Source of the DNA: an uncultured Candidatus Altimarinota bacterium
GTDB lineage: Bacteria > Patescibacteriota > Gracilibacteria > BD1-5 > UBA6164
NCBI GenBank assembly: GCA_937999345.1
Contig: CALLBL010000005.1
Span: 8,196-72,195, forward strand
DNA length: 64,000 bases
Reading direction: 5' to 3'
The position numbers and the translations under genes are program-made. The first letter of the stretch is position 1. Every line of letters begins with the position of its first letter. Positions 8,148-55,711 of the stretch are shown in pieces. Under the pieces are notes generated by a model, which ran no database searches, was not told the origin of the DNA, and saw only the letters and a program-made list of their open reading frames with translations.

Positions 8148-9311
8148 ATGAAAAATATTTGCGTACGCTTCTTGCATTTGCTTAAAAATATTGGTACTGA
8201 TGTGCTATTTCTTTATAAAAATTTCTTCCATTGGAATATATCTAAATTCCTTATTTTGATAGCCTCTTTTGTAGTCGGATTATTATTATCACTACCATTT
8301 TTTATCTTGCTTCTCATCCTTGCACTTATAGATCCTATAGAGTGGTCAAAAGTAATGTTTTCAGATATTAATATATATATGAGTATAGCTCAGTATATTG
8401 CTATACATCCTTTTTATCTACTTGCAGAATTCATTCTTTTTGTGATTTGAGTTGCTCTTTTATTTTTATGAATGAGCTATCATATTATATTGGAATCAAA
8501 TCTTTATCTTCATTATTTTAAAAAAGAAAAACTTCCTGTTAAGAAAAACTTCTATTTTGATGCATCAAAGATATATACATATTTTGGCATCTTGTCTTGG
8601 CTACTCGCATATTTGATGCTACCTATTTTAGTTTTACTCTGAGTTTTTATTGTACTTTTTATTGGATTTAAGTTTTTCTTCTTACCTGAGATTCTCCTTT
8701 CTGTTATATTATTTATAGCTCTTGCTATATGTGCCGTTTGGTTTTTATACCTTTCGTACAGAATTAGTTTCGCTTACTTAGTATTTGTAGATCAAGTCGA
8801 TGAAAATGAACCTCAAAAATCTAGATCATACGTACAAAAATCTCTCGCTCTCACTTCATGAAAAGTATTTTTTAAATTCTTTAGTATTATTATTATATTT
8901 ACGATTTTGCTCGCACCAATAAATCTAATAGGAGCAAATATGGAAAATAATATTAATGAAATAAGAAATTATTTCTGATATAAATCTGGGCAAGTACAGA
9001 TAGTAGATGAATCTGATCAATTTGAGTATGAATATTTAAGATGACTCTTTTCTGAAAAAACTGATGATGAGCTTATCTCTGATTTACAAACGCTCTATTT
9101 CCAGCAGGTTGTCTATACACTATTATTCTTTTTGCTATGTAGTTGAGTACTTACTATGATTATGACTTCTTTTTACAAGCGTGCTCTCGTGATGCAATGG
9201 TCAAAAGTGAAAAAAGAAGATAAAAAAGAAAAGAAGAATGAAAAATTAAAAAATATAAAAGAAGAGAAGAGTACAAAAAAGAAAGACAAAACTGACAAAA
9301 AAAAGAAATAA
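8148..9311 (+). CDS. Multi-pass membrane protein with lysine-rich C-terminal tail
   Basis: 387-aa table-25 ORF with several long hydrophobic segments. Tail is KVKKEDKKEKKNEKLKNIKEEKSTKKKDKTDKKKK. Confidence 0.65.
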
Positions 9312-21364: not shown

Positions 21365-21388
21365 AAAGACTCCCGAAAGGGAGTCTTT
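21365..21388. terminator. Bidirectional intrinsic terminator
   Basis: AAAGACTCCC-GAAA-GGGAGTCTTT between convergent genes. Confidence 0.75.
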
Positions 21389-21401: not shown

Positions 21402-22046
21402 TTATTGAGATTCACTTAAAATCTTAACTAAAAGCCACATATGAAATAATCTTTCTCAATCTCCACAAATATTATTTTTAAATAGTATTTCTGCCTCAGA
21501 GACTTTGAAGTCAGCTTTTTCCAGCTCAGCAATCTTTTTAAGGACATCCGATTGATAATATTGGCCATTTCTGTATATTTCTCAATTAACCAATCTTTCT
21601 CAGGCATTATATGCATTGATGATAGCTTGTTTTTCTAATTCATTAAGTTTTCTTCAAAGGCAATCAATTGATTCGGCTTTTAACAATCTATTTTCATTAT
21701 CTAGAGAAGAATCTAATATATCTAGAATAGCCTTTGAGATATCGACATCTTCTGATTTCTCATTTAGATATTTTTTTGCTATATCATCAAGTATGAAAAT
21801 GGATTTTAATATATTTCCTTTATTTTCTCAGGTAGCTGTCGATAACAAATTAATTATGTCTTCAATAAAATCATCAAATTTAGGCTCATATTTTCTATAG
21901 TGAGCTACATCAATCTGAAATTTATCATTATTTCAACGATATAATTCATTTAAGAATGCATCTTTCCAATATTCTTTTTTTTCATTCTGACTTAATTCAT
22001 GATAACTAGCTCATTTTTCTGAGATAGTATTCTTTATATGTTTCAT
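21402..22046 (-). CDS. Hypothetical protein D2 (214 aa), last gene of the operon; its C-terminus shares a ~50-aa module with the 837-aa protein
   Basis: Every codon mapped. C-terminal KQAIINAYNAGERLVNG...SDVLKKIAELEKADFKVSEAEILFKNNICG. Confidence 0.65.
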
Positions 22047-22053
22047 AATTGTT

Positions 22054-22446
22054 TTATTCTGAGAGTATGTTATTTGTCTTTTTTGCTCATTTTTCTATCT
22101 CATCTATAGTATCGGAATATATTCTATTTATAATAGATTCATTTTTTATGATGAATGTATTATTTTTATAGTTTTTTATTATATCTGCATCTTTTAATCT
22201 TGCTCATGCCCTTAATGATTTATGATCATAGATTCATACCCAAGTATCAAAATTAAAATTTTCTTCTGATAATTCTTTAACTTCATGAACCTCCATATGT
22301 GTTCATTTATTTTTAAATATCTCAAAAATAAATTTACCATCGCTAGTTATACATACATCTAAAATTTCACTATAGTTTAAGAATATATGAAATCAATTAT
22401 TTAATGATTCCTTTAGTGATTCAGATATTTTATTAATTTCTACCAT
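22054..22446 (-). CDS. Hypothetical protein D1 (130 aa)
   Basis: Every codon mapped. ATG lies 1 nt after the stop of the HD gene. Ends TAA 22054-22056, just past an A6 tract. Confidence 0.6.
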
Positions 22447-22447
22447 T

Positions 22448-23263
22448 TTATTTTGAAAGTATATCTCAAATTTTAGCTGTGTTCTCATTTCTTTTGTTTT
22501 GAGCTTCTTTAAAGTCTCTTACTTTTTTAAGATCTTTGATTCTCGATTCTTGTACTTCTGAAATCTCATTAGTTTTTAGATAATCAATCACATTTACTAT
22601 TTCTTTCGCTATTACAGGGTATTTATCTTCTATTAATGGAATAACTTGTGATAATGTTCTATCAAAATATCAATTTTTCCATTCTGTATCTTCAGTAAAC
22701 ATTGTACTGTATATATTTGCCAATCTGTCTACAGACTTTACTAGAAGTGCAGAATCAGAGTTCCTTATCGTTGTATAATAATCTTCTTCTTCTATTACTT
22801 TTCAATCCACAGAGAAAGATACAAGTTTTACTATTTCAGCAACTTCTTCTCAAAATTTTAGTACTAATTCATTATAAGATGTATTTGTGTCTTCAAGGAT
22901 ATCGTGTAATAATGTTGCTAAAAATTCTTTTAAACTTCATCAACTCTGAGCACAATATATTGCAGCCATCATTGGGTGGTAGTGATATTCTGTATTTTCA
23001 TCCCTATATTGTCATTTATGCTTATTTTCTATAAAATTAAGTACTTCATATATTACTTCTTTATTGTTTGGAAAAGAAGCATCTACCATTTTCATAAAAC
23101 GTTTAGATATCTCAGATTGATCTAAATAAATATTTATTTCTGATTCTATAGAATTAGATATCTTTTGTGTATTATACCAAGATGGAGTATCTGAAATTTC
23201 TGTGCTTTTTAAACCTTTGGTAAAGTCTTCAACTGAGAATGGTTGTCTAGGCGTTATATTCAT
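22448..23263 (-). CDS. HD-domain phosphohydrolase of the RelA/SpoT (Mesh1/small alarmone hydrolase) type with an 80-aa N-terminal extension
   Basis: NKHKGQYRDENTEYHYHPMMAAIY...LATLLHDILEDTNTSYNELVLKFGEEVAEIVKLVS matches H-x-GQ-x-R...Y..HP...LLHD..EDT...FG..VA..V. Frame scanned and found intact. Confidence 0.8.
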
Positions 23264-23270
23264 AATATTA

Positions 23271-25784
23271 TTATTTAAGTAATGCTTCTTGAAGTTTTAA
23301 TAGTCTTTCTATTTCCTCATTTTTACCTCCTTCAATTATAAGTGTTTCCTGTTTTTTTTCAATTATATTTTTTACTATTATTGATAATTCTCAAGAGTCA
23401 AGATTTTCAGGTGTTTTATTTATTTCTTCTATTCATACAATTCTAGCTTCTCAGATCCCTCTTGAATTATCTACATAATTTATATTGGGTACATCTCTAG
23501 AGTTTAATTCATTCATTACATTTCTTACTTTTTTATATGTTTCTTTATAATATGAAACTCATACTGGCCTCCCAGTTTCTATTGCTCTTTTTACTATAGA
23601 TTCCCGTGCTTGTATAGGATCTCTATGTATCATATCAATATCTATATTGTGAATATTTGCTTTATTCGCCTCATTTTGTAAGTAGTCAATAAATCTTATA
23701 TCACTTAGTGGTGAATCAAATGTTATATCTGCTTGTCTATTTCGTGAATTTTCTACTACTTTTCCAGCTGAAGATTTTCATGATCCTGGTGCACCTCATA
23801 TTAATCTAATTCTAGAATTTATATCTCATTCTATTCCAAGTAGGAGTAATCTATAATGTATTTTGCTTAATTTTTGTACTATTTCATCAAATTCAGAACT
23901 ATTGAATCACTTATATTTTATAAAAATTTCTCTAAATGCATCGGGATCAATAACCTTTCAATTTTTAGCTGTATATATTGAAAATAATTCTTTTAATAAT
24001 TTATTTCAAGATACTAATTTTAAGACTTCCTCATGGCTTATAGATTCTTTAATAATAAATCATTTATCTTTATCAAAAATTTTAACAAATCATGGTATCT
24101 GTTCTAATTTGTCTATTGAAAGATCTAACTCAAGTATTCTTGATTTTATAGTTTCCGAACCACAAATATTATTATCAAGAAGCTTTCTAATATCTGTATT
24201 ATCAAATCCTCCTTGTTTCAGCGTTTTTACTTTCTTAGAGATATCCGAGATTGGATACAAACCATCCTCTCATCTCTCTCAGATCCTATGAGCCTTTATA
24301 ATTGCTTTTTTCTCTACGTCTTTTAGGTCTCTTCATAGATTTAATACACTTACAGCCTTATCTAATCGATCTATATCATCAGCTGAGAAGTCTAAGTTTT
24401 TCGTTTCTTCTACTTTCCCAAACAACATCTCCTTTATCTTCTTCACAGTATCTGGGCCTATCCCCATCTTTTCTCACATATCAGCAAAGCTTTTCATCAG
24501 AACACTTGGTTTTATTCTTCCAATTGCTTTTCAAACTTTTCAGAGTTTTCCAGCCTTTACTAAGCCTTGTACTCAAAATGCAGTAGCTCATAAACTTATT
24601 AGTCATATTAACCATTCAGCTGGAAACTCTTCCATATGAAACTCTTTTGGTACTATTCCTGATGCTTTCAATCATTTCATCACTCCATCCTGATTGGTGA
24701 GAGTACTTGTTAAATCTGCTGGCACACTCGTCACTGCTCCTGCATAAGGAATGAGTTGAGAAAGAACCGTTATGAGATATGCTACCATAGCATCTGATTG
24801 TATAGCTTGATCTGCTTCGCTGAGCATAGTTATCTCACGAATAGTAGATATATCTCATCCCATAGCTTCAAATCTTTTCATATGTCATCCCATATTTACT
24901 TGGAGGGTATCTATTTGAGCCATGCCATTGAAACCAAGCTCATCAAATTCTCAGCTCTTTGTATCTACTGGTGCATTAAACATTTCTTGAGCCTCAGATA
25001 TATTTCTCCCAAGCATACCTCTCACTATATTTTGTCTTTCTTCTATTGTTACGGTTCTTGAAGGTATCATATCTGAAGCAGGAAGCTCATATTCTTCAAA
25101 TTCCATACTCGCTATAGTATTTTCTATAAATACTTCTCTACTTTCTGCTTTGCTATACTCTTGAAGCATAAAGGCACTTGGAAGTATCTTATTGTTTATT
25201 TCTCAGAGATTATCTTGGATTTTTACATTGAGTATCCACCTCTGACCTGCTATATCTTCAGGATTGTTTTTCTTAATTTTCTGTACTATGTCTCAAATTT
25301 TTGAGATACGTATTCAGATAGAGGCTATTATTTTATTTTTTATTTCAGGCTGCAGCTCTGCTAAATCATTCTCTATATAATCCTTGTATCCACTTAGATA
25401 CTGAGAAATATCTAAGTTCAAACCATCAGTTGTTAGTTCTTCGTGAATAGAAACCAAATCATTGATTCAAAAATATTCTCATAGTGCTCATAGTGACTGA
25501 ATTTTCTCTCAGGCTTGTTCCATTATCTGTGGAAGATTCATACTTTGCATTTGAGAAACAAGAGCTTCTCAGATTTGTGATTGTTTTAGGTGTAGCGCGC
25601 TCGCAAATAAGGGATTAGATGAGGCTAAACTTGATACTATATCACGAGTTTGTTCTAAGTTTCCATCCTCAGCTATAGCATCTATACTTTCCATATCTCA
25701 CTTCAATAAAGCCTCAGAATGTATTGCTTGTACTTCTGGACTTATGCTTGGTCATTCGAAATATTCCGTGTTAGCTTGTTCCAT
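23271..25784 (-). CDS. 837-aa protein: unknown helical N-region, hydrophobic hairpin, C-terminal Zeta-toxin-like P-loop kinase domain
   Basis: Whole frame scanned: no TAA/TAG. Walker A RLIGGAPGSGKSSAGKVV (nt 23769-23798), then ADITFDSPLSD and NIDIDMIHRD. Hydrophobic AMVAYLITVLSQLIPYAGAV and EWLIGLISLGATAFGVQGLV. ATG overlaps the upstream TAA (TAATG). Confidence 0.75.
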
Positions 25785-26095
25785 TATATGATGCTTTGTA
25801 ATAAATTTTCTAACTCTTTTTCTTTGCTTATTGATTCACTTTTTTCTAATTGTCTTTCTTTTTTCATTCTATACTTTACATATTCTTGTTTGATATATGA
25901 AGGCTCTATATTATCTCTTTTTCTTTCTTCTTTTAAAAACTCTAAGAGTATCTTATTTTCTGCCGATATCAGCTCTGAGATAACTCCTAACTGTTTCTCT
26001 GATAGTTTTTCAAAATGCATTAAAATTTCCTGTTTCATATGTTCAGGAATTATTAATGTATCTTGTATTTGCTTATAGAGAAAGTTAGTATCCAT
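25784..26095 (-). CDS. Small helical protein A (103 aa), first gene of the operon
   Basis: Intact standard ORF ending in TAA. Charged, coiled-coil-like (KQEYVKYRMKKERQLEKSESISKEKELENL). Confidence 0.7.
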   Translation of the reverse strand: MDTNFLYKQIQDTLIIPEHMKQEILMHFEKLSEKQLGVISELISAENKILLEFLKEERKRDNIEPSYIKQEYVKYRMKKERQLEKSESISKEKELENLLQSII

Positions 26096-27246: not shown

Positions 27247-27777
27247 TTACATATTCTCTCTATATTCCATGTGAAGCTTTCAAAGAATATTTCTTCACTG
27301 CCTTGCGTCATGGCTAATTCAAAAAAACTCATCTCACCAATAGGTGAATTCTATAATCTCTCTATCTCAGGTGCTTCTTAGCATATCTTGCCTCCAAGAA
27401 CTATTATCATATTTCTTCTGTATAGTTTCTCTCATAAATTCTATTCTGTTTTCATCATTTATATTCATGATGCTTTTGTATTTGTATGCAACTTTTTTAG
27501 AGGTGTTTTTTATTTTTGAGGCTGCAGCTATTTCTTTTTTTATTTCTAAATCATCAAATCGAAGAGACATATAGTATCATTCACTATCCTCATATATATT
27601 TCCATGTCCATCTTGTATGGGATATTTAAGATGACTAAAGTTTGAACCACGCTCAAAAGCATCATAAAATTCTCAGCGAGTAATTTTGTATCTTTCTAAT
27701 ATTTGAGGATGTATGATGAGATACGCTTCCTGTATTCTTTTTGGAGTATATATTTCTAGTGGGTAGTTTGATAGCAT
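27247..27777 (-). CDS. Hypothetical protein (176 aa)
   Basis: Table-25 ORF starting 12 nt downstream of the desaturase stop. No motif recognised. Confidence 0.55.
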
Positions 27778-27789
27778 GTTTTTTGAAAG

Positions 27790-28587
27790 TTATTTTCCTC
27801 TCGAGTACCAAAGAAGATTATATTTTTTATAGTATTTATTTTCTATCTTGTCTTCTATAGTTTTATGGAAATCTGGAAGTTTAGACCAGTGCATTCATCC
27901 TTTGAGATGGTGGGCTGTATGATATCCAAGATTTCCAGTTACAAAGTTGTACCATGGAGTTATGATATTATAAGATGATTTATACGGATCATCACTTTCG
28001 AGTCAGCTATGATGATGATAGGTAGTATATACAGTTATGAGGAGTCCAGTAATCATGGGAATTAGAAATATAACTATTCATTGTAGAGGTTGTATCGAAA
28101 TTAACGCAACCAGTAACACGAGCTGTATCAGAAACATAGATAAAAAGTTTTTCTGAATCGTTTTATGTTTATTCCCAACTATCCAAGCTCTATAATACGC
28201 AGTGACAGTTACTATCCATGTATAAAAAAGTGGATGATATCTCTTTCATTTTGGAGATTTCCAAGCTGATTCATCTTTTGTCTGATCCTGATAGTGTGCA
28301 TGATGTCCTAGGTTGTGATGAAGCACCCAACAATATCCTACAATCCCAGTTTGGAATCAGTATATAATTTCTAAGAGTCTATTGAGTATTGATTTTGAAA
28401 ATGTATTTACATGCTGATGATGGTGATTCCACGCGCAGATAAATCATTTTGTCATGATAGAAAATACGCAGTATAATCAAAGTGTAAGTCATGAGATTCA
28501 CAAAATGTATACATATATATCTATCAAGAATAATCAGATAAATAGAGAAATAGGAAGGATATCTGTTTTGTATTTGAAGTAGGTCAT
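27790..28587 (-). CDS. Membrane fatty-acid desaturase family protein
   Basis: Three His boxes (WNHHHQH, HHNLGHHAH, YHTAHHLKG) separated by hydrophobic helices. 265 aa. Confidence 0.8.
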
Positions 28588-28725: not shown

Positions 28726-29595
28726 ATGGTTCTCAGAGTTCCTCAAGATAATGGTCATGAATATACTGATTACAAAGATGCTATTGATAATATTAACCAG
28801 CACCTTTTATATATACAAGAAAATCACGAACCTCAATTAAACTGGTCTATTTATGGTTCTTTTCTTCATAATAGATTACGTCCTGGATTGAGTGATATAT
28901 ATGTATATTTATTACACGATAGTGATAGAGATGATTTCCCATTAGATATAGTATCATCTTGCCTAGATATAAAAACAAGTTTAGAAGATATTTGAATTCC
29001 TATAAAGATGCATCATACAACTACATGACAATTGAGTGAAAATTATTTTTCTTATTCTGATTATGCTATGGAGATAGTAAGATGAATACAAAGTCCGTAT
29101 TGTTCTCAGGATTTCAAGGTTTTATTTTCACACATTGAGAATATGCAAAAGAGTAATAAGGATATGATGAATGCTTATGTAGAAGATATAAAAACTCTTT
29201 TAGCTTTTTTACCAAAAACAAAAGAATTATCATCTATTCCAAAAAATAAAATTAATCCTCAAGAACAAGGAGAATTGGTAGAAATCTGGAGTATTTTTAG
29301 AAAAATGATTTCTATTTGTGCACTTGCTATAGAGCTAGATGATACTATACATATAGATGAATCTGCTTTTAGTAAGCCATATAGATGGGTAATCCAATGT
29401 TTTGCTTCAGAGTTTGATCCACATTGTACTGAAAATCTTATACAATATTATTTGAGAACAATTATTGGCATTAGAAATATGGATGATTGGTATCGTTTCT
29501 TATCTAATTGATGAGTAAGAAAAATAGAAAAACTTTATGAGAAGGTATTTATACCATTTTTAAATGCTATAGATAATAAATTTACAATAAAATAA
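28726..29595 (+). CDS. Pol-beta-superfamily nucleotidyltransferase-like protein, catalytic motif degenerate (paralogue 1)
   Basis: IYGSFLHNRLRPGLSDIYVYLL: G-S present, but DxD is replaced by DIY. Frame verified. Shares N- and C-terminal blocks with the next gene. Confidence 0.65.
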
Positions 29596-29597
29596 TT

Positions 29598-30470
29598 ATG
29601 CCATTAATAGTTCCAACATTACAAGACTACGATGAAGCAGAACAAAAGATTATTGAGTTTTTTTGAGATGTAGAATTTTTCAGGAGAGTAAATCAGAAAG
29701 TAGACTATATTATATATGGTTCATATTCAACTGATAAAGTAAGACCATGACTGAGTGATATAGATATGATGATACTCGCTCATACTGATGATTTAGTTTT
29801 TCCTTTTGATGTTTGAACAGCTTTTGCTTGGACGAAATGAGAAATAGAACAATTGGGTATACCTTTGCAGGTCAATATGTGTACTACTGGATTATTGAAT
29901 AGTCAACATTTTTCACCTGATTATGAATATCTTATGGAAGTGAAAAAATGAATAGAGAGATGAAAAACTTCGTCTAATAACATATGAAAATATTTTAAAA
30001 ATCATCGAGATAGTGATATAGATGATATGCATATGGTAAGATACTTTCTCAGAAAGGTAAATTCTCTTTATCAGGATTTCCGCAATATAGATCATTTAAT
30101 AATGAGATATAGTAAAGAAGACCTTAATAGGGAGCAGCAAAAAAAAGTTTGGCACGCATGGGATAATTTTAAAAAGATGATGTCAATTATTACTGTTGTA
30201 TTAAGAATCCAGAATAAAGAATCTTTGTTTTCAGAGACAGATGCTCATATAATGGAAAAATTTTCTCAAAATTTTGACCAAGATATAGATATGTCTGAAT
30301 ATGTTGTCATACTAGAATCTATTCAAGACATATGAGATTGGTATGATTTTTTACAGAGTAGTAAAGACGATGGTTTTAGAAGAATTATAGATTTATATAA
30401 AAATACTTTCACTCCGATGATAAATACTATTGATAAAAAATTATTGCTTCCAACTGATTCCAACATATAA
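29598..30470 (+). CDS. Pol-beta-superfamily nucleotidyltransferase domain protein (paralogue 2, motif intact)
   Basis: IYGSYSTDKVRPGLSDIDMMIL (GS...DxD). Frame verified. ATG lies 2 nt after the previous stop. Confidence 0.7.
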
Positions 30471-48068: not shown

Positions 48069-51638
<3,570 letters not shown>

Positions 51639-51679
51639 AAATTCTCTATTTACAAAAATAATCCCTAAATCTAAATACT

Positions 51680-55711
<4,032 letters not shown>

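Follow-up and report, generated by a model that had tools for sequence, protein, structure and literature searches.

Some of the hydrolases that share the catalytic domain of RelA and SpoT serve to neutralise toxins. Aph1 (also BcSAH; PDB 7smg) of Bacteroides caccae is a single-domain HD hydrolase of 149 aa encoded just downstream of Apk2, a polymorphic-type (p)ppApp synthetase toxin fused to MuF. Aph1 hydrolyses (p)ppApp and so protects from Apk2 and from Tas1, an HD mutant loses this protection, and its (p)ppApp specificity has a signature made up of residues D24, R96, D116, R119, K133 and Y134 (PMC10083569). ATfaRel, the small alarmone hydrolase (SAH) antitoxin of the toxSAS FaRel (PMC7229694), neutralises FaRel enzymatically, as Aph1 does for its toxins (PMC10083569), rather than by sequestration. 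Here we analyse a gene encoding a putative immunity protein of this kind (protein C), found in a 64,000-nucleotide stretch (the window) of contig CALLBL010000005.1 from an uncultured Candidatus Altimarinota bacterium. The gene stands directly behind that for a large polymorphic-toxin-type protein (B), the tip of which is predicted to be a kinase not of the RelA/SpoT type but of the zeta-toxin fold.

Zeta kinases have partners of a quite different kind. In the epsilon/zeta, PezA/PezT and Neisseria gonorrhoeae epsilon1/zeta1 systems (PDB 1gvn, 3q8x, 2p5t and 6epg), a small helical protein encoded upstream binds the kinase and occludes its ATP site. The motif with which zeta and PezT bind UDP-N-acetylglucosamine (UNAG) is GTXR, and AvrRxo1, a further zeta-family kinase, phosphorylates nicotinamide adenine dinucleotide (NAD) (PMC6362051). 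In AvrRxo1-Arc1, the NAD 3'-kinase effector system of Xanthomonas (4z8u), the zeta-fold kinase is delivered and its target is an adenine dinucleotide, of which it phosphorylates a ribose hydroxyl; a binding chaperone neutralises the kinase, and no HD partner is known for it.

The locus cannot be read with the standard bacterial code. The open reading frame (ORF) of gene C is complete only with code 25 (TGA = Gly), the code of the Gracilibacteria/Absconditabacteria type; translated from position 23263 of the minus strand with table 11, it meets a TGA stop after 83 aa. Across the window code 25 yields long ordinary genes (rpoB, rpoC and aspS among them) and the bacterial code short ORF fragments, and all translations were remade with table 25. 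Glycine in gene C is encoded by seven in-frame TGA codons and one GGN, with TGA at Gly84 (in H-x-G-Q-x-R) and Gly138 (in F-G-x-x-V), both of them positions in RelA/SpoT hydrolase motifs. In toxin B, TGA accounts for 35 of the 66 glycine codons, including two in the Walker A motif. The presence of TGA at conserved motif glycines in both genes shows that an earlier reading of the locus from its sequence alone (the sequence-only reading), which had implicitly taken TGA as glycine, was correct to do so; the ORF is real and the peptide quoted there agrees letter for letter with the code 25 translation. Public sequencing runs that match the window are marine metagenomes.

Several side observations concern the code. 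TGA makes up 13–19% of glycine codons in rpoB, rpoC and aspS (48069–55711) against seven of eight in gene C, and the GC minimum of the 64-kb window (~26%) coincides with the toxin cassette at 22448–25784. Public entries for the cassette genes have been translated with code 4 (Trp for TGA), leaving their precomputed Zeta_toxin and HD_4 Pfam matches 'faint' or 'weak'. A word-indexed protein search overlooked close relatives present in the collection, and full-length code-4 B recovered N-terminal relatives only; a tblastn-based locus finder breaks at TGA, so that code-25 loci were overlooked.

The sequence-only reading had taken C for a stand-alone hydrolase of the RelA/SpoT type, and this assignment holds. 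Pfam places HD_4 at residues 75–151 (E 3.6e-9, 37.0 bits, cut-off 27.2) and NCBIfam finds the N-terminal hydrolase region of spoT_relA (TIGR00691; E 5.9e-17); over the 271 aa the Pfam matches are confined to HD_4/HD, with no RelA_SpoT synthetase, TGS or ACT domain. Sequence comparison with the PDB returns Mycobacterium tuberculosis Rel, human and fly MESH1 (E 2.9e-8) and bacterial SAHs, and a profile of ten C-family sequences reaches Rel hydrolase domains at E 1e-18. The match to Aph1 is weak for the single sequence (E 0.0086) and improves to 1.1e-7 with the family profile, with the N-terminal half covered. The motifs H82-x-G84-Q85-x-R87, H96, H120-D121, E124-D125 and D179-R180-L-x-N183 align with their Rel and MESH1 counterparts, and alignment with known hydrolases of this type, which the same reading had proposed as a check, finds the metal-binding and catalytic His and Asp residues of C all intact. 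Across the ten family sequences (33–57% identity) Q85, R87, H96, H120-D121, E124-D125-T126, D179-R180 and N183 are invariant; H82 is replaced by Leu in one member.

The predicted structure is in keeping with this. An AlphaFold2 (AF2) model of C, built with nine homologues, is all-helical (predicted local distance difference test (pLDDT) 84.9, predicted template modelling score (pTM) 0.83), and Foldseek matches it to Thermus thermophilus Rel and Pseudomonas aeruginosa SAH (PaSAH; TMt 0.79–0.82, root mean square deviation 2.2–2.5 Å), to MESH1 and to Aph1 (7smg; TMt 0.72–0.83). By its predicted residues and fold, C is a catalytically intact, synthetase-less HD hydrolase of the RelA/SpoT type, and most likely an active Mn/Mg-dependent phosphohydrolase of the SAH/Mesh1/Aph1 family. 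MESH1 (HDDC3), the metazoan SpoT orthologue (3nr1, 5vxa, 9chy), has the same fold and motifs as C, and the Foldseek matches of the C model include 5vxa and 9chy; unlike C, it is a housekeeping enzyme of 179 aa with neither extension nor toxin partner.

The extension in question precedes the HD domain. It had been put at 80 aa, and while its existence is confirmed, its length is not: PDB relatives begin to align at residues 53–78 of C, so that compared with Mesh1, SAH and Rel domains the extra sequence is ~55–70 aa long. The view that it has no recognisable relatives stands, as nothing in Pfam or the PDB matched it, and these searches likewise found no similarity to epsilon or PezA. Residues S36, I39, E40, E42, I45, L47, I52, R55 and F64 are conserved in the nine homologues, and AF2 predicts confident helices at residues 39–46 and 49–63 behind a disordered stretch (residues 1–37); together, conservation and modelled helices indicate that the extension is genuine coding sequence. 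It is also present in HD proteins paired with Tas1-like toxin domains (below), and it would probably add a surface for toxin docking or oligomerisation. An alternative start at Met57, which would do away with the extension, was considered and ruled out, since residues 36–55 are kept in all homologues and the helices are modelled with confidence.

The gene upstream of C, described as kinase-like in the sequence-only reading, ends in a domain that can now be placed more closely. The C-terminal 285 aa of B score 28.2 bits with Pfam Zeta_toxin (cut-off 22.3) and three orthologues score 53, 42 and 48 bits. In an AF2-based Foldseek search (model pLDDT 78.9, pTM 0.77) the seven best PDB matches are zeta toxins, headed by N. 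gonorrhoeae zeta1 (6epi/6epg; E 4e-8) and then pSM19035 zeta; AvrRxo1 and PezT follow at lower ranks with adenylate kinases between them. By PDB entry, 6epi/6epg are followed by 3q8x, 1gvn, 4z8u and 2p5t. Sequence searches of the PDB, with the single sequence or a four-sequence profile, gave nothing significant, and the fold search alone succeeded. The zeta subfamily to which B belongs conserves the Walker A motif, two invariant Asp residues (615 and 690 of B) and several lid Arg residues; Walker A, a conserved Asp and lid Arg residues are features in common with the epsilon/zeta, PezA/PezT and epsilon1/zeta1 kinases. The subfamily departs from zeta and PezT at the position of GTXR (Pfam profile 99–105), which reads TFDS[TP]L[SN] and, among more distant relatives, [FYL]D[SGA]x[LF]S, in a register taken from hmmscan coordinates rather than from a displayed alignment.

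The order of motifs in the kinase is also unusual. Some 50 residues ahead of Walker A, the subfamily carries a GN[VI]ID.D..R motif resembling the segment around Asp67 of classical zeta and PezT (ID.D.FR), and it is with the GTXR region that the residues directly behind the P-loop align. On this sequence evidence, the zeta fold may have undergone a segment transposition or a circular permutation.

The remainder of B has the look of a delivery scaffold. Its two Gly-rich hydrophobic segments, which have counterparts in four related toxins (of loci L001, L003, L005 and L088), form a possible membrane-insertion hairpin, and in most toxins of this set the linker domain ending in NNICG recurs ahead of the C-terminal part that varies. 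Pfam and NCBIfam scans of B found no signal peptide or known trafficking domain.

Comparison with related loci reveals what varies in these proteins and what varies with it. Proteins P0020–P0022 are 71–75% identical to the N-terminal 63–73% of B and have different ends. Residues 1–477 of B are 83% identical to the L006 toxin, which has a Tas1-like C-terminus, and residues 1–612 are 72% identical to the L007 toxin, which ends in an ABC1/APH-like kinase (Pfam ABC1, 26.9 bits). Similarly, the N-terminus of the L003 toxin is 53% identical to that of L089, a toxin tipped with a bona fide synthetase (Pfam RelA_SpoT, 43.6 bits), and the N-terminus of the L005 toxin is 47% identical to the Tas1-like toxin of L088. 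The Tas1-like tips of L006 and L088 have Tas1 (6ox6) as their sole PDB match (E 0.027) and match Pfam RelA_SpoT at E 0.06–0.08.

We compared the C-terminal toxin domain (the warhead) with the gene downstream in nine loci retranslated with code 25, all against all. The two change together. Behind the zeta-like kinase, the next gene encodes an HD protein of the C subfamily (257–275 aa) in all four loci; behind the Tas1-like warheads of L006 and L088 (two of two) it encodes an HD protein of 332–337 aa, 32–34% identical to C with the extension included; behind the RelA_SpoT synthetases of L089 and L090 it encodes a classical SAH of 330 aa; and behind the ABC1-like kinase of L007 it encodes an unrelated protein of 173 aa. 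The zeta-associated HD proteins form a group of their own (44–65% identity), apart from those associated with Tas1-like warheads (~34%). As a side observation, the polymorphic toxin family of B occurs in code-25 bacteria at loci L006, L007, L088, L089 and L093, and one 1455-aa protein, P0026, from a 1.49-Mb genome, ends in what by eye resembles a Cys protease of the calpain or papain type (…NCYFVAS…GHAYSV…).

The linkage of HD gene and kinase is tight. Genes B and C are separated by 7 nt (TAA-TAATATT-ATG), as the sequence-only reading had it, and the HD gene follows the zeta-like domain at 7–11 nt in four of four independent loci (the window, L001, L003 and L005), between which the flanking genes and the toxin N-termini differ. 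That reading had made such linkage in relatives its own test, and the two are adjoined in every relative's locus found with this kinase. No other gene 3' of the HD gene is common to the four. The family is a small one: C has eight close homologues among 5.8 billion proteins, and a family-specific DNA pattern, which picked out every known member while matching no locus in a set of 80 generic SAH loci, recovered three further loci in Joint Genome Institute (JGI) metagenomes. The 80 generic SAH/RelA–SpoT homologue (RSH) loci, our negative control, contain no such kinase; viral contigs contained neither the HD nor the kinase pattern, and PADLOC gave no defence-system match. Kinase relatives at E ≤ 1e-30 make up only three clusters in the library searched, and the partnership with an HD protein would appear to have arisen locally, within a very small clade.

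Shared scaffolds, the co-variation of warhead and downstream gene, and orphan modules (below) together identify the minus strand from ~21.4 to 26.1 kb as what reads as a polymorphic toxin–immunity cassette with C in the immunity slot. The placement of C as an immunity gene, proposed in the sequence-only reading, is borne out in this respect; the accompanying picture of a two-gene toxin–antitoxin module is not, as each exchange of a warhead takes the gene behind it along. In the same way the cassette differs from the two-gene, cytoplasmic toxin–antitoxin system of ATfaRel and its RSH synthetase toxin, in that B is modular and presumably delivered. Nor does the cassette appear to be a module of the epsilon/zeta type: the partner is encoded downstream, is a 271-aa protein of the HD-hydrolase type unrelated to epsilon, and faces a kinase that lacks GTXR and forms the tip of an 837-aa protein. 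We consider it likely that C is the cognate immunity protein of the kinase warhead.

The closest parallel is Aph1, which C resembles in position, just downstream of a polymorphic-type toxin, and in the retention of the catalytic HD and ED residues; Aph1 degrades the product of its toxin, and the model of C superposes on it. The differences are that the partner of Aph1 is an RSH pyrophosphokinase and that of C a predicted zeta-fold P-loop kinase, that C adds the N-terminal extension and a long C-terminal helix, and that no Tis1-like second immunity gene was recognised in the window. The logic of Aph1 recurs in sister loci L006 and L088 with their Tas1-like warheads. In the mechanism we favour, B would be a delivery scaffold (an N-terminus with two hydrophobic helices, the linker ending in NNICG and the zeta-fold kinase tip) whose tip would phosphorylate a small molecule. 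Protein C would hydrolyse the product, shielding the producing cell and any siblings to which the toxin is delivered, a form of enzymatic, type IV-like immunity akin to that of ATfaRel. This enzymatic mode, inferred by analogy, is favoured by the invariant catalytic residues of the family, by the Aph1 and ATfaRel precedents and by the presence of sister HD proteins behind synthetase-type warheads.

What the product might be is a matter of best guess, held with modest confidence. Since it is Tas1-like and RelA_SpoT warheads on the same scaffolds that the nearest HD relatives of C guard, and since the kinase lacks GTXR, we suggest a ribose-phosphorylated adenine nucleotide made by AvrRxo1-like chemistry, such as 3'-NADP or a pAp-like molecule, or else a phosphorylated RNA 3' end. 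The product of AvrRxo1 is a plausible type of substrate for a SpoT/Mesh1-type hydrolase: MESH1-type enzymes remove the ribose phosphate from NADPH and act on 3'-phosphoadenosine 5'-phosphosulfate (PAPS) (PMC12934728), so that the activity of the family extends beyond the removal of pyrophosphate. Phosphorylated UNAG, one of the substrates put forward in the sequence-only reading, is weakened as a candidate by the loss of GTXR, the UNAG-binding motif; a UDP-sugar phosphate is nevertheless a possible product, zeta1 being the best structural match of the modelled kinase. For the whole of this reading (polymorphic cassette, immunity by enzymatic hydrolysis, ribose-phosphorylated adenine product) we would put the chances at slightly better than even.

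A number of points weigh against it. The zeta–HD pairing is known from four independent loci only, all of them code-25 metagenome contigs, and the assignment of the L006 and L088 tips as Tas1-like depends on weak scores. Both AF2 models, as well as the library search, used the code-4 sequence, with Trp at the TGA-Gly sites, and the kinase model in addition was built from only four sequences and has a pLDDT of just 78.9. Its best match is the UDP-sugar kinase zeta1 and not AvrRxo1. Above all, binding is the norm for immunity in the zeta family, and the conserved extension could act as a binding module that makes catalysis dispensable. This last point leads to a distinct account, in which C is still the cognate immunity protein but blocks the kinase by binding it in type II fashion, as epsilon, PezA and Tis1 do, with the HD fold as a scaffold, the extension as the docking element and any hydrolase activity irrelevant or a leftover. 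For every zeta-family toxin characterised so far, neutralisation is by a binding protein (PMC6362051), systems of the Aph1 type carry a binding immunity protein as well (PMC10083569), four more distant members of the zeta subfamily have small non-HD, non-enzymatic genes downstream or none, and the extension is conserved and, according to AF2, partly ordered. Yet catalytic and metal-binding residues that are invariant in ten sequences down to 33% identity are not expected of a scaffold, and an extension shared with the HD proteins behind Tas1-like warheads is not specific to zeta. We regard immunity by binding as unlikely, while giving it more weight than the two accounts that follow.

It might also be argued that C is not matched to the kinase at all, and is a (p)ppApp/(p)ppGpp hydrolase, general or orphan, that confers resistance to the RSH-type warheads of neighbouring strains, the kinase being neutralised otherwise or not at all. 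At L089 (1497–3279) and L090 two different HD genes lie in tandem behind the RelA_SpoT toxin, followed by two small genes; the window-type HD is the second of the pair, split into two ORFs at L090, and there is no zeta gene on either contig. Moreover, the nearest relatives of C guard Tas1-like warheads, and Aph1 cross-protects against divergent synthetase toxins (PMC10083569). Set against this, both contigs are short (4.3 and 2.8 kb, respectively) and orphan immunity genes are to be expected in polymorphic toxin loci; the HD gene immediately adjoins the zeta domain at all four zeta loci and its products there form a distinct group; and no other conserved candidate is found upstream or downstream save protein A, which tracks the toxin N-terminus and not the warhead. 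An unmatched hydrolase therefore strikes us as improbable. Locus L001 offers a related side observation: at 9075–9308, directly after its own HD gene, lies a 77-aa fragment of an L089-type HD (58% identity). Least probable by far is that C is a housekeeping SAH, serving the stringent response or as an NADPH phosphatase, that lies near B by chance, or that B and C are a non-toxic kinase/phosphatase signalling pair. SAH/Mesh1 homologues are indeed widespread as single-domain enzymes (hundreds were found in a contig scan) and the active site of C is intact. The C subfamily is tiny, however (nine proteins in 5.8e9 sequences and the three JGI loci), and is always found within toxin cassettes, whose flanking genes change from case to case; its kinase partner occupies the variable end of a polymorphic toxin scaffold and is absent from the generic SAH/RSH loci, and the cassette has a far higher share of TGA glycine codons and a lower GC content than housekeeping genes.

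Immunity by alarmone-type hydrolases has, to our knowledge, so far been tied to toxins of the RelA/SpoT-synthetase type. What the known zeta-family kinases poison is either cell-wall precursors or NAD. Our search of the literature found no paper linking zeta-type kinases with alarmone-type hydrolases, which suggests that the pairing of such an immunity gene with a zeta-kinase toxin has not been described before. An HD hydrolase locked to a zeta-fold kinase points to an uncharacterised substrate or product in one branch of the zeta kinases, and C, as the putative cognate hydrolase, would be a ready reagent for identifying it. Zeta, Tas1-like and RelA_SpoT warheads on one scaffold, each with an HD protein of its own, also provide natural comparison sets for the determinants of SAH specificity. 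More broadly, the locus indicates that diversified toxin–immunity cassettes are at work in candidate-phyla bacteria that have reassigned a stop codon, and that annotation with code 11 or 4 fragments or mistranslates the genes of such cassettes.

A bolder and rather doubtful extension of our reading would make the warhead a new antibacterial nucleotide kinase, acting on a ribose hydroxyl of an abundant adenine nucleotide (NAD(P) or ATP/ADP) or on the 3' end of RNA or tRNA, and C the first dedicated ribose-monophosphate 'eraser' among immunity enzymes, taken over from (p)ppApp hydrolases that serve as immunity proteins on the same toxin scaffold. If true, a nucleotide kinase warhead would converge functionally with (p)ppApp-synthetase and tRNA-pyrophosphorylating toxins. 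More distant kinase relatives are found in other company: in L094 and L095 (P0036 and P0033) they are fused to phage MuF, beside terminase-like genes, or to PAAR-like DUF4280. These fusions belong to the four more distant subfamily members mentioned above, and behind them lie small unannotated genes or none. Both of these delivery modules are also known for (p)ppApp synthetase toxins.

Features of the toxin cassette and their positions in the window
Feature	Position	Strand	Evidence
Toxin B, 837 aa, modular protein of polymorphic-toxin type	23271..25784	-	N-terminus 72–83% identical to proteins with other C-termini
Predicted zeta-toxin-fold P-loop kinase domain of B (residues 553–837), warhead	23274..24128	-	Pfam, AF2, Foldseek
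Walker A motif of the kinase, GGAPGSGKS	23772..23798	-	
Linker/pre-toxin domain of B (residues ~470–550; LGRxLxxxEKxAIIxAHxxGE...NNICG)	24135..24377	-	
Two Gly-rich hydrophobic segments of B (residues 332–352 and 387–410)	24555..24791	-	Kyte–Doolittle scan
HD protein C, 271 aa, SAH/Mesh1/Aph1-like phosphohydrolase of RelA/SpoT type, putative immunity protein	22448..23263	-	HD_4, invariant residues, AF2, Foldseek
His120-Asp121 codons, metal-binding HD dyad in LLHDILEDT	22901..22906	-	
Family-specific N-terminal extension of C (residues 1–65)	23069..23263	-	Homologue conservation, AF2
Protein A, 103 aa, helical; stop overlaps start of B	25784..26095	-	
ORF of 130 aa, begins 1 nt after stop of C	22054..22446	-	
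ORF of 214 aa, residues 111–210 copy the toxin linker domain, ends just past NNICG	21402..22046	-	
Terminator-like hairpin (10-bp stem and T-run), closes the minus-strand gene string	21365..21388	-	Consensus match only

Of the remaining cassette genes, that for protein A has homologues upstream of sister toxins, with 73–76% identity at L006 and L007 and 25% at L003; Pfam, NCBIfam and PADLOC gave no family match. Since it tracks the scaffold and not the warhead, A may serve as an adaptor, as a chaperone or in export. The 130-aa ORF behind C, with no homologue in the related loci, is possibly an orphan immunity gene, and the 214-aa ORF has the appearance of a toxin module that is orphaned or truncated, its linker copy being 47% identical to residues 463–556 of the L007 toxin. 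No RNA-seq runs containing the cassette sequence were found, and the operon structure is inferred from spacing and the one terminator-like hairpin. A strong sigma-70-like match (TTGAAA-16-TATAAT, 11/12) lies at 23335–23362 (-), inside the 3' end of B and ~70 nt before the start of C, and could be a promoter for gene C itself, in a window where such matches are near background (41 found, 34.5 expected).

Beyond the cassette, and with no link to it established, the neighbouring genes at 27247–27777 (-), 27790–28587 (-) and 28726–30470 (+) include one for a NADAR-domain protein (54.7 bits). The neighbours also include a His-box membrane protein, by eye a fatty-acid desaturase or hydroxylase, and two tandem paralogues of ~290 aa, the second of which has a weak nucleotidyltransferase (NTP_transf_2) match.

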